Below, piece after piece: positions 27,485 to 36,768 of a stretch of 64,000 nt of DNA. A program made the position numbers and the translations under genes. Below the pieces are notes generated by a model. That model saw nothing but the letters and a program-made list of their open reading frames with translations, was not told the origin of the DNA and searched no databases. This DNA is from Escherichia coli (GTDB lineage: Bacteria; Pseudomonadota; Gammaproteobacteria; Enterobacterales; Enterobacteriaceae). Each line of letters opens with the position of its first letter. Position 1 is the first letter of the stretch. The stretch is from the NCBI RefSeq assembly GCF_050920415.1, contig NZ_CP169309.1; one strand, 5' to 3'.

Positions 27485-29179
27485 GTGGCAATGGGTAGTG
27501 AAAAAAAGGCGAAAGGCTGGCGGTTCTATGGTCTTGTAGGTTTTGGCGCAATAGTACTGCTTTCCGCTGGTGTCTGGGCATTGCAATATGCTGGTAGTGG
27601 GCCAGAAAAAACGTTGTTGCCGCTGGTGGTACACAACAATCTGCAAATCGATCTCAATGAGCCGGATCTCTTTCTCGATAGCGACTCTCTAAGCCAGCTT
27701 CCCAAAGATCTTCTTACTATTCCTTTTCTTCACGATGTTCTAAGCGAAGATTTCGTTTTTTATTATCAGAACCATGCCGACCGTCTGGGCATTGAAGGCA
27801 GCATTCGCCGCATTGTCTACGAACACGATCTCACACTAAAAGATAAGCTCTTTTCGTCACTCTTAGATCAGCCCGCGCAGGCGGCGCTATGGCACGATAA
27901 ACAAGGCCATCTTTCTCATTATATGGTGCTGATCCAGCGAAGTGGTTTAAGCAAGCTGCTGGAGCCATTGCTGTTTGCCGCTACCAGCGACAGCCAGTTA
28001 AGTAAAACGGAAATCAGTAGTATTAAGCTAAATAGTGAAACCATCCCGGTTTATCAGTTGCGCTATAACGGCAATAACGCCCTGATGTTCGCAACTTATC
28101 AGGACAAGATGCTGGTGTTTTCCAGCACGGACATGCTGTTTAAAGATGATCAGCAGGATACCGAAGCCACGGCGATCGCAAGTGATTTGTTGAGCGGTAA
28201 AAAACGCTGGCAAGCCAGCTTTGGCCTGGAAGAGCGTACTGCCGAAAAAACGCCAGTACGCCAGCGCATCGTGGTCAGTGCAAATTTGCTGGGTTTTGGC
28301 TACCAGCGATTAATGCCTTCTTTTGCTGGTGTGCGCTTCGAAATGAGCAACGACGGCTGGCACAGTTTTCTGGCGTTAAATGATGAATCCGCAAGCGTAG
28401 ATGCCAGTTTCGATTTTACGCCTGTATGGAACAGTATGCCCGCAGGGGCCAGCTTCTGTGTGGCGGTGCCTTATTCACATGGTATTGCTGAAGAGATGCT
28501 TTCCCACATCAGCCAGGAAAACGACAAGCTCAACGGGGCGTTAGACGGTGCTGCGGGGCTGTGCTGGTATGAAGATTCAAAATTGCAAACCCCGCTGTTT
28601 GTCGGTCAGTTTGATGGCTCAGCCGAACAGGCACAACTGCCTGGAAAACTGTTTACGCAAAATATTGGTGCGCACGAAAGCAAAGCGCCAGAAGGTGTTT
28701 TGCCGGTAAACCAGACTCAGCAGGGCGAAGCGCAAATCTGGCGTCGCGAAGTGAGTTCCCGATACGGCCAGTATCCGAAAGCACAGGCGGCGCAACCAGA
28801 TCAATTAATGTCGGATTATTTTTTCCGCGTGTCGCTGGCGATGCAAAACAAGACGATGCTTTTCTCCCTCGATGACACGCTGGTCAATAACGCGTTGCAA
28901 ACACTGAATAAAACCCGCCCGGCAATGGTGGATGTGATACCCACTGAAGGCATTGTTCCGGTCTATATCAATCCACAAGGCGTGGCGAAACTGCTGCGTA
29001 ACGAAACGCTGACCAGTCTGCCGAAGAATCTCGAACCGGTTTTTTATAACGCCGCACAAACTTTATTAATGCCGAAGCTGGACGCTTTATCTCAACAACC
29101 GCGTTATGTCATGAAGCTGGCCCAGATGGAACCCGGTGCCGCCTGGCAGTGGCTACCCATTACCTGGCAGCCACTATGA
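27485..29179 (+). CDS. yfaA: YfaA (DUF2138-type) protein, first gene of the alpha-2-macroglobulin-associated cluster
   Basis: 564-aa ORF with AAGGAA RBS; N-terminal hydrophobic segment ([20 protein letters not shown]); stop overlaps the yfaT start (ATGA). Confidence 0.8.
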
Positions 29180-29799
29180 GGCACGGGCTGCTGGCGCTGA
29201 TTTGCTGGCTGTGTTGTGTTGTTGCTCATAGCGAAATGCTGAATGTCGAACAATCGGGGCTGTTTCGCGCCTGGTTTGTGCGCATTGCACAGGAACAGCT
29301 TCGCCAGGGGCCAAGTCCGCGCTGGTATCAGCAGGATTGTGCGGGCCTGGTGCGATTTTCGGCGAACGAGGCGCTGAAAGTTCACGACAGCAAATGGCTA
29401 AAAAGTAACGGTATAGCAAGTCAGTATTTGCCGCCTGAAATGACGCTAACACCTGAACAGCGTCAACTGGCGCAAAACTGGAATCAGGGGAACGGAAAAA
29501 CCGGCCCCTATGTGACCGCGATTAATTTGATTCAGTACAACAGCCAATTTATTGGCCAGGACATAAACCAGGCGTTGCCTGGCGATATGATTTTTTTCGA
29601 TCAGGGCGATGCCCAGCACTTAATGGTCTGGATGGGGCGTTACGTCATCTACCACACCGGAAGCGCCACGAAAACTGACAACGGAATGCGCGCAGTCAGT
29701 CTGCAACAACTTATGACATGGAAGGACACCCGATGGATACCCAACGATTCCAATCCCAATTTCATTGGCATTTATCGTTTAAATTTTCTGGCGCGATAG
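29176..29799 (+). CDS. yfaT: YfaT (DUF1175-type) protein
   Basis: ORF 29149..29799; start placed at ATG 29176 overlapping the yfaA stop; N-terminal hydrophobic signal/anchor ([19 protein letters not shown]). Confidence 0.75.
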
Positions 29800-35987: not shown

Positions 35988-35991
35988 TGCT

Positions 35992-36768
35992 ATGCGAAAG
36001 ATTTTTCTTCCGTTGTTACTGGTGGCGCTTTCGCCTGTTGCCCATGGCGAAGGTGTGCAGGAAGTCGAGATTGATGCACCGCTCTCTGGCTGGCATCCGG
36101 CAGAGGGTGAAGATGCCAGTTTTTCACAATCGATCAATTACCCGGCGTCGTCCGTCAACATGGCAGATGATCAAAATATCTCAGCGCAGATCCGCGGCAA
36201 AATAAAGAATTATGCGGCGGCGGGTAAAGTTCAGCAGGGCCGGTTGGTGGTCAACGGTGCCAGTATGCCGCAGAGAATTGAATCCGATGGTTCATTTGCA
36301 CGCCCTTATATTTTCACTGAAGGCAGCAACAGCGTGCAGGTCATCAGCCCAGATGGGCAAAGCCGACAAAAAATGCAGTTTTACTCAACGCCGGGGGCTG
36401 GAGTGATCCGCGCGCGTTTACGGCTGGTTCTCTCGTGGGATACGGACAATACCGACCTCGATCTTCATGTTGTCACGCCGGATGGTGAACACGCCTGGTA
36501 CGGTAACACGGTGCTGAAAAACAGTGGTGCACTGGATATGGATGTCACGACGGGTTACGGACCGGAGATTTTCGCCATGCCAGCGCCAGTTCACGGGCGC
36601 TATCAGGTATATATCAACTACTATGGTGGACGCAGTGAAACGGAATTGACGACCGCCCAACTGACGCTGATCACCGATGAAGGATCGGTTAATGAGAAAC
36701 AGGAAACATTTATTGTACCGATGCGTAATGCTGGCGAACTGACGCTGGTGAAAAGTTTTGACTGGTGA
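35992..36768 (+). CDS. yfaP: YfaP (DUF2135-type) protein
   Basis: 258-aa ORF 4 nt after yfaQ; signal peptide (MRKIFLPLLLVALSPVAHG). Confidence 0.75.
   Translation: MRKIFLPLLLVALSPVAHGEGVQEVEIDAPLSGWHPAEGEDASFSQSINYPASSVNMADDQNISAQIRGKIKNYAAAGKVQQGRLVVNGASMPQRIESDGSFARPYIFTEGSNSVQVISPDGQSRQKMQFYSTPGAGVIRARLRLVLSWDTDNTDLDLHVVTPDGEHAWYGNTVLKNSGALDMDVTTGYGPEIFAMPAPVHGRYQVYINYYGGRSETELTTAQLTLITDEGSVNEKQETFIVPMRNAGELTLVKSFDW

Follow-up and report, generated by a model that had tools for sequence, protein, structure and literature searches.

Intact type II (Mag-type) alpha-2-macroglobulin operon of Escherichia coli with a macroglobulin, YfaS, that lacks the thioester motif

The genes yfaA, yfaT, yfaS, yfaQ and yfaP form an intact cluster in a 64,000-nucleotide stretch of an Escherichia coli genome (assembly GCF_050920415.1, contig NZ_CP169309.1; the whole stretch is called the window here). 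Judged by protein families and gene order, this cluster is the E. coli type II (Mag-type) bacterial alpha-2-macroglobulin (A2M) operon, collinear with magB-C-D-E-F of Pseudomonas aeruginosa. Two kinds of bacterial A2M have been distinguished: type I, with a CxEQ thioester motif and a lipobox and encoded beside pbpC, and type II, encoded in a multi-gene operon (PMC3735191, PMC5764988). A thioester-less YfaS in a Mag-type operon is already described in the literature. A 2025 finding is that MagD protects against type VI secretion system (T6SS) effectors that target peptidoglycan, and the survey reported here sharpens the question of type II function with repeated loss of the thioester, a conserved bait and two partner proteins that bear cell-wall-enzyme signatures.

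The assignment rests on families, positions and order. By clusters of orthologous groups (COG), MagB had been paired with DUF2138 (YfaA), MagC with DUF1175 (YfaT), MagD with A2M (YfaS), MagE with DUF2300 (YfaQ) and both MagA and MagF with DUF2135 (YfaP; PMC3735191), and the cluster presents DUF2138, DUF1175, A2M, DUF2300 and DUF2135 in the type II order. The gene names had been proposed in a preliminary description made from the letters of the window, and they agree with the Pfam families and with the RefSeq annotation of strain MFDS1022581, which is 100% identical across the cluster region and carries the same five names. Position by position, the E. coli proteins are each 47–70% identical to their counterparts in a Pseudomonas locus. 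YfaA (Pfam DUF2138, E = 2e-286; NCBIfam PRK11410) is 47% identical to the P. nitroreducens protein at the MagB position, and its family holds the same position in 40 or more loci. YfaS is 54.5% identical to Pseudomonas MagD-type proteins, and YfaP (Pfam DUF2135, E = 6e-17) shares 54% identity with the Pseudomonas copy that lies downstream and 41% with the one upstream. In NCBIfam, YfaT, YfaS and YfaQ had no match, and the one for YfaP was due to chance. Across species-representative genomes, an operon-order scan picked up about 50 loci, with the order P-A-T-S-Q-P in Pseudomonas and A-T-S-Q-P or A-T-S-Q-P-P in Burkholderiales, Rhodocyclaceae, Desulfobulbus and Oligoflexia.

The P. aeruginosa Mag system (magABCDEF, PA4492-PA4487) has the same five families in the same order as the yfa cluster. 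The Mag complex and YfaS share the absence of a pbpC neighbour and of the thioester cysteine and, judged by eye for YfaS, apparently also of a lipobox, and their baits are near-identical. They differ in that P. aeruginosa has magA, a paralogue of magF/yfaP and the only gene of the set that the E. coli cluster lacks, and in that MagD is reportedly cysteine-free whereas YfaS has three cysteines. Pseudomonas mag is regulated by RsmA/GacA acting on the magA leader.

YfaS contains the macroglobulin domains of a type II A2M: Pfam places MG2 at residues 344-440, the bait-region domain A2M_BRD at 661-806, A2M at 871-953 and the bacterial MG10 domain (bMG10) at about 1410-1517, with E values from 5e-19 to 1e-5. 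The motif C.EQ is absent from the whole 1534-residue translation, in line with the definition of type II in PMC5764988, and YfaS likewise has neither the lipoprotein signal nor the pbpC neighbour of type I. Its only cysteines are residues 25, 27 and 1189, and C1189 is the sole cysteine of the mature protein. In K-12, residue 27 (29811-29813, within the signal peptide) is a serine, and the cysteine count thus varies between E. coli alleles.

A PDB sequence search with YfaS returned only complement C5 and CD109, both weakly (E ~1e-3), and ECAM structures were absent from its matches; the thioester site was therefore placed by family alignment instead. A single-sequence AlphaFold model of residues 850-1534 was unusable, with a predicted local distance difference test score (pLDDT) of 33. 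In a MAFFT alignment of 41 sequences, which was used to locate the thioester column, ECAM C1187 and YfaS G1069 fall in one column, and the site equivalent to ECAM C1187-LEQ is G1069-V-I-N1072 (32937-32948, plus strand). A BLASTP segment pairs ECAM YPYGCLEQTASGLFP with the YfaS stretch that contains these four residues. The cysteine, the glutamate and the glutamine of CxEQ are all substituted, and covalent capture is predicted to be impossible in the thioester-less enterobacterial lineage. Three cysteines and no CxEQ were what the preliminary description had read from the translation, and both statements hold; the loss of CxEQ also stands in the BLASTP segment and in the MAFFT column.

The type I proteins YfhM/ECAM and Salmonella SaA2M belong to the same superfamily as YfaS and share its overall domain plan, and the context of the YfhM thioester motif is recognisably like the corresponding YfaS stretch. 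Identity between YfhM and YfaS is, however, about 20–22%, and the only significant BLASTP segment spans 278 residues (E = 6e-8). K-12 YfhM has CLEQ at 1187-1190, a lipobox cysteine (Cys18 in LAGC) and a pbpC neighbour, whereas YfaS has none of these, and the partner genes differ. Both A2M types adjoin a gene for a protein with a penicillin-binding fold, PbpC in type I and, by prediction, YfaQ in type II. E. coli is known to carry a thioester-bearing YfhM together with a thioester-less YfaS, the K-12 copy of which is defective. Complement C5, naturally without a thioester within the C3/C4/C5/A2M superfamily, offers a parallel: it too has the macroglobulin fold at full length, and despite the lost thioester it remains functional once cut at a defined site. 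It is, however, very distant from YfaS at the sequence level, eukaryotic and of unrelated function.

Most relatives with the same operon keep the thioester, and its absence is therefore no family-wide trait of type II. At the thioester position homologues read YPYGC[VAIT]EQTASRLIP, and YPYGC[VAIT]EQ is present in 29 of the 39 full-length representatives of 50%-identity clusters and, likewise, in all loci with the same operon from Burkholderiales, Rhodocyclaceae, Desulfobulbus and Oligoflexia. The thioester-bearing yfa/mag-type members are 40–55% identical to YfaS over the full length and share the A-T-S-Q-P(-P) order; unlike YfaS, they keep YPYGC[VAIT]EQ. Within Pseudomonas, CxEQ is kept in P. 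citronellolis, P. knackmussii and P. alcaligenes, and other Pseudomonas read G-V-E-Q. All sampled Enterobacterales (E. coli, E. albertii, Superficieibacter, Serratia and Yersinia frederiksenii) read G-V-[I/V]-N; thioester-less Pseudomonas thus keep the glutamate and glutamine that Enterobacterales have also replaced. Further family members have serine or threonine at the position of the thioester cysteine. In Pseudomonas schmalbachii (P0261) the site reads YPYCGVEQ, with a cysteine one residue early beside an intact G-V-E-Q.

A neighbour-joining tree (200 bootstraps) groups the Enterobacterales in a single clade (99%). Its sister group (90%) is a Pseudomonas clade (100%), where the cysteine and glycine forms interleave. 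On this rough distance tree, which makes any count of losses provisional, the thioester appears to be ancestral in the yfa/mag operon type and to have been lost repeatedly. The enterobacterial loss was probably a separate event from those in Pseudomonas, which number at least two, and further losses, to serine or threonine, appear to have occurred outside both groups. A single loss shared by Escherichia and Pseudomonas is unlikely, since CVEQ-bearing Pseudomonas proteins are nested within the Pseudomonas clade. Neves 2012 (PMC3328433) had stated that a second A2M class is without the motif 'in many species' rather than throughout; the present survey refines that statement and is no discovery. 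Natural pairs with and without the thioester exist, even within Pseudomonas.

The preliminary description called the cluster mechanistically uncharacterised, which is out of date given the P. aeruginosa Mag studies (PMC3735191, PMC5764988, PDB 7BK8, PMC12663445) and a yfaQ deletion phenotype. The Mag complex has been under study since 2013, with non-covalent protease trapping and anchoring by MagB (PMC3735191, PMC5764988). MagD resides in the periplasm, held on the inner membrane by MagB, which anchors and stabilises it; MagA, MagB and MagF each form a 1:1 complex with MagD, and it is processed in vivo to about 100 kDa in a manner that requires MagB and apparently MagE (PMC5764988). Chymotrypsin, trypsin and papain cut MagD in the bait, and tobacco etch virus (TEV) protease is retained non-covalently by MagD after cleavage of an engineered bait (PMC5764988). 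In a 2025 CRISPR interference screen, the mag operon and magD protected against the peptidoglycan-targeting T6SS effectors VgrG3 and Tae1, with no mag protection against other effector classes (PMC12663445). Deletion of yfaQ in E. coli K-12 gives wider cells and a phenotype profile that clusters with mepK, mepS and nlpI deletions (bioRxiv 10.1101/2025.02.11.637708).

The experiments in P. aeruginosa, together with the folds of the Yfa proteins, lead us to a model that we favour with moderate confidence, each step being carried over to E. coli by analogy: an inner-membrane-anchored, peptidoglycan-associated complex that would clamp incoming hydrolases non-covalently. All five Yfa proteins would be exported. 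YfaA would anchor YfaS to the inner membrane on its outer face, and YfaP would bind YfaS. YfaT, with its NlpC/P60-like fold, and YfaQ, with penicillin-binding and SpoIID-like folds, would tie the assembly to peptidoglycan. A cut in a conserved linker at about residues 850-872 would then cause YfaS to clamp the attacking enzyme without a covalent bond, and the complex may thereby guard the cell wall and periplasm against hydrolases such as peptidoglycan-targeting T6SS effectors or host enzymes.

Export signals are discernible on all five proteins, as the preliminary description had held, and they are predictions made by eye. YfaA has a hydrophobic N-terminal stretch (about residues 12-31, 27524-27583, plus strand) that is a putative membrane anchor, YfaP appears to have a signal peptide, and the Sec-type leaders seem to end at VAHS in YfaT, ANA/DD in YfaS, TLA/EE in YfaQ and AHG/EG in YfaP. 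For YfaS, the choice of start codon matters. The Prokaryotic Genome Annotation Pipeline (PGAP) begins the gene at GTG 29823, which gives 1504 amino acids that begin without a hydrophobic leader. The RefSeq start is probably wrong, and ATG 29733 would yield a normal signal peptide (29733-29846, plus strand; residues 1-38) that by inspection is cleaved at ANA/DD and holds C25 and C27. The n-region QRFQSQFHW encoded from this start has counterparts in distant homologues (RQSQFYRR, RQPKFYW and KQPKFFR). By eye, I-A-A-C25 is loosely lipobox-like but is located within the hydrophobic core.

YfaT (Pfam DUF1175, E = 2e-58; a weak NLPC_P60 match, E = 0.0026) is 74.2% identical over 186 residues to the MagC structure PDB 7BK8 (E = 7e-103). 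Alignment of homologues identifies C55 (29338-29340), H148 (29617-29619) and H160 (29653-29655), all on the plus strand, as conserved: D54-C55-A-G, H148 and H160 occur in every homologue that covers them (50–53 of 53). A cysteine in a D-C-x-G context with two histidines downstream is the NlpC/P60 arrangement, and any enzymatic activity is putative. A listing in the review PMC10318531 places DUF1175 among inactive families, and the same review cites binding of peptidoglycan by DUF1175/MagC.

On its modelled folds, YfaQ is a multi-module protein of the cell-wall type. A penicillin-binding or beta-lactamase fold is predicted at about residues 25-250 (plus strand), where the motifs corresponding to SxxK, SxN/SxV and KTG read S60-x-x-K63 (34515-34526), S108-C-G and K195-T-W. 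It is followed by a SpoIID-like part at about residues 310-445 (plus strand), in which E334 (35337-35339) occupies the position of the catalytic glutamate of the SpoIID/LytB lytic transglycosylase group; in the PDB, the YfaQ profile matches only SpoIID. The AlphaFold model, built from 21 homologues, has a pLDDT of 87 and a predicted template modelling score (pTM) of 0.75, and S60-x-x-K63, S108, K195, E334 and eight cysteines are invariant among the homologues. The same two-domain picture, penicillin-binding plus SpoIID, is given in bioRxiv 10.1101/2025.02.11.637708.

The C-terminal part of YfaQ carries a further motif, H520-E-x-x-H524...E536/E540 (35895-35957, plus strand; located by homologue alignment). 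The pattern H-E-Y-L-H...P...E...E is invariant in 21 YfaQ/MagE homologues of 35–88% identity, and so are H520, E521, H524, E536 and E540. In the AlphaFold model the HExxH lies on a helix with three strands before it and a second helix after it, an order of elements compatible with a zincin, and the motif resembles the site of a zinc metallopeptidase. No mention of the HExxH...E motif of YfaQ was found in the searchable literature.

This motif and the Cys-His-His set of YfaT raise another explanation, namely that the 'bait' of YfaS is an internal maturation site cut by one of the two partners, the penicillin-binding-fold domain of YfaQ sensing damaged peptidoglycan; the cluster would then be a self-arming cell-wall guard in which covalent capture was abandoned in Enterobacterales. 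We regard this as quite unlikely. The 105-residue C-terminal profile of YfaQ found no metallopeptidase relative in the PDB, only chance matches to angiogenin (E >= 0.1), MagE has been reported as cytoplasmic in P. aeruginosa (PMC3735191), and one review lists DUF1175 as inactive (PMC10318531). The details of such a scheme are just as doubtful: cleavage would arm or regulate the complex, and the penicillin-binding-fold domain of YfaQ would sense peptidoglycan stems, with BlaR1/MecR1 as the model.

The non-covalent clamp that we favour would be sprung at the linker equivalent to the bait that was defined for MagD in PMC5764988. Alignment of the MagD bait ANRSERG with YfaS TNRSERR places this linker at residues 850-872 (32280-32348, plus strand), and the segment contains the basic run ERPRRE. 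Its mean column entropy among 34 family members is 0.66, compared with 1.38 overall, which puts it at the 5.6th percentile of all 23-residue windows. Broad-spectrum A2M baits evolve fast. These figures bear directly on the possibility that YfaS is a classical broad-spectrum periplasmic inhibitor of host or foreign proteases, with its partners as mere scaffolds and without any particular tie to peptidoglycan. The cutting of the MagD bait by three proteases and retention of TEV protease speak for such an inhibitor, as does the A2M domain set of YfaS, and according to work cited in PMC5764988 a magD mutant is reportedly less virulent. We nevertheless consider it unlikely: few stretches of YfaS are as conserved as the bait, in contrast to broad-spectrum A2Ms, folds of peptidoglycan enzymes with conserved active-site signatures occur in two of the partners, and the only clean phenotype concerns effectors that target peptidoglycan, one of which is lysozyme-like and not a protease.

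Several observations weigh against our own model of a peptidoglycan-associated clamp as well. A conserved bait appears unlike a fast-evolving decoy, and to the extent that the clamp acts as a broad-spectrum decoy the linker fits it poorly. No experiments on E. coli YfaS were found in the searchable literature. In P. aeruginosa, MagE localised to the cytoplasm and no MagC was detected in the complex (PMC3735191), and both results are a misfit with a simple periplasmic assembly of five proteins. That the yfaQ phenotype comes from K-12, with its truncated yfaS, indicates that YfaQ has a role independent of full-length YfaS. Knock-outs of single genes (yfaS in K-12, yfaQ in an O157:H7 strain and yfaA in E. 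albertii) imply that the system is dispensable in some settings. Lastly, a promoter scan found no sigma-70-like promoter upstream of yfaA.

The lesions raise the question of whether the cluster is a decaying relic, in which YfaS lost its function along with the thioester and the genes are drifting towards pseudogenes. Supporting this are a nonsense codon in K-12, a yfaQ stop in an O157:H7 strain, a yfaA stop in E. albertii NBRC 107761 and many truncated E. coli YfaS entries in the databases. In MG1655, yfaS (b4500) is annotated as a pseudogene of 4605 nucleotides, the same length as in the window. The sole K-12 lesion is at codon 1368 (33834-33836, plus strand), which is TGG (Trp) here and TGA in K-12; K-12 yfaS has a single in-frame TGA and no frameshift. 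The preliminary description had given K-12 yfaS as a split pseudogene, and while the pseudogene status stands, the 'split' amounts to one nonsense codon (W1368, TGG to TGA). Its reading of the window gene as one uninterrupted open reading frame of about 1534 codons is borne out, with no frameshift.

Alleles at this codon were counted with 55-mer queries that carry the variant base at position 28, which places it inside every 28-base seed word. Of 5426 complete genomes, 364 have the K-12 TGA allele, the matches listed being K-12 derivatives and other laboratory strains, and the TGG allele is present in at least 4341 of the same 5426. At least 80% of the cluster is covered in 5178 of these genomes, and E. 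coli Nissle 1917 has all five genes intact. O157:H7 strain SS TX 313-1 (locus L075, 6853-8502) has an internal stop in yfaQ and also a shortened yfaA, and the E. albertii type strain NBRC 107761 (locus L005, 5645-7444) has an in-frame yfaA stop that leaves 379 and 220 amino acids. An intact cluster is the rule in E. coli, with sporadic lesions in different genes; the preliminary description was right that the cluster is intact in the window, and this is nothing special to the strain.

Window and K-12 yfaS are 95.1% identical in nucleotide sequence. Between them, the ratio of nonsynonymous to synonymous substitution rates (dN/dS) is 0.060 for yfaA, 0.073 for yfaT, 0.053 for yfaS, 0.102 for yfaQ and 0.045 for yfaP, with dS of 0.11–0.24 across the five genes. 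These low values indicate that the thioester-less YfaS and its partners are maintained by purifying selection. A decaying relic is very improbable on this evidence and can be set aside: dN/dS is about 0.05 over 1534 codons in alleles 5% apart, G-V-[IV]-N persists all the way from Yersinia to Escherichia, the great majority of complete genomes cover most of the cluster, and the main cluster of full-length YfaS proteins has 40,950 member sequences. Natural isolates with five intact genes are a tractable host for the study of type II macroglobulin function; the practical value is modest.

The stretch from yfa to ato (27485-40135) is rare among E. coli. Only 2 of 5397 genomes are at least 99% identical to it, the next highest among the matches listed, an evenly spaced sample, being 95.8%, and the window stretches 5000-13000 and 50000-58000 have neighbours at 99.0–99.1%. 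Relative to K-12, dS is 0.20–0.24 for yfaA and yfaS and 0.10 for gyrA. Together, this suggests a rare, deep-branching haplotype imported by recombination from a divergent Escherichia lineage.

All five genes lie on the plus strand, closely packed between gyrA (24717-27344, plus strand) and atoB (36842-38026, minus strand, convergent with yfaP): yfaA at 27491-29179 (ATG start, with an alternative GTG at 27485), yfaT at 29176-29799, yfaS at 29733-34337 (1534 codons plus TAA), yfaQ at 34338-35987 and yfaP at 35992-36768. The co-directional packing and the junctions are as first described from the open reading frames, with an ATGA overlap of yfaA and yfaT, the GTG start of yfaQ directly after the yfaS TAA, and a gap of 4 nucleotides before yfaP. 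The 1534-codon frame of yfaS overlaps the end of yfaT by 67 nucleotides.

From the gene packing, the flanking terminators and the Pseudomonas operon, the five genes may be taken to be co-transcribed. Within the 146-nucleotide spacer between gyrA and yfaA, after the gyrA stop, a hairpin followed by a T-tract (AAAAGGGAG-TTAT-CTCCCTTTTTT; 27362-27385, plus strand) can be read from the sequence; it is likely the gyrA terminator and the upstream edge of the yfa unit, and it was not listed by a consensus promoter and terminator scan. Between yfaP and atoB lies an inverted repeat (AAAACGCCCGAT-(10 nt)-ATCGGGCGTTTTT; 36802-36836), GC-rich with A and T runs on its flanks, which is likely a bidirectional terminator for the two convergent genes. 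The terminator scan found no credible plus-strand terminator inside the cluster, a result compatible with a single transcript that falls short of proof. Promoter-like sites in the promoter scan were fewer than in shuffled sequence. An Rfam search of 27000-37000 found no RNA family, and a PADLOC search with the five Yfa proteins gave no match.

yfaS and yfaQ share a reading frame, with only the TAA between them (34335-34340). E. coli database entries that join A2M, SpoIID and DUF2300 domains exist (P0186, P0189, P0205 and P0207) and look like stop-loss fusions or annotation read-throughs. Upstream of gyrA, the RefSeq annotation of the identical strain marks a partial pseudogene ('missing C-terminus') at about 22621-23592, between ypaB and ubiG, near which position K-12 presumably carries the autotransporter gene yfaL.

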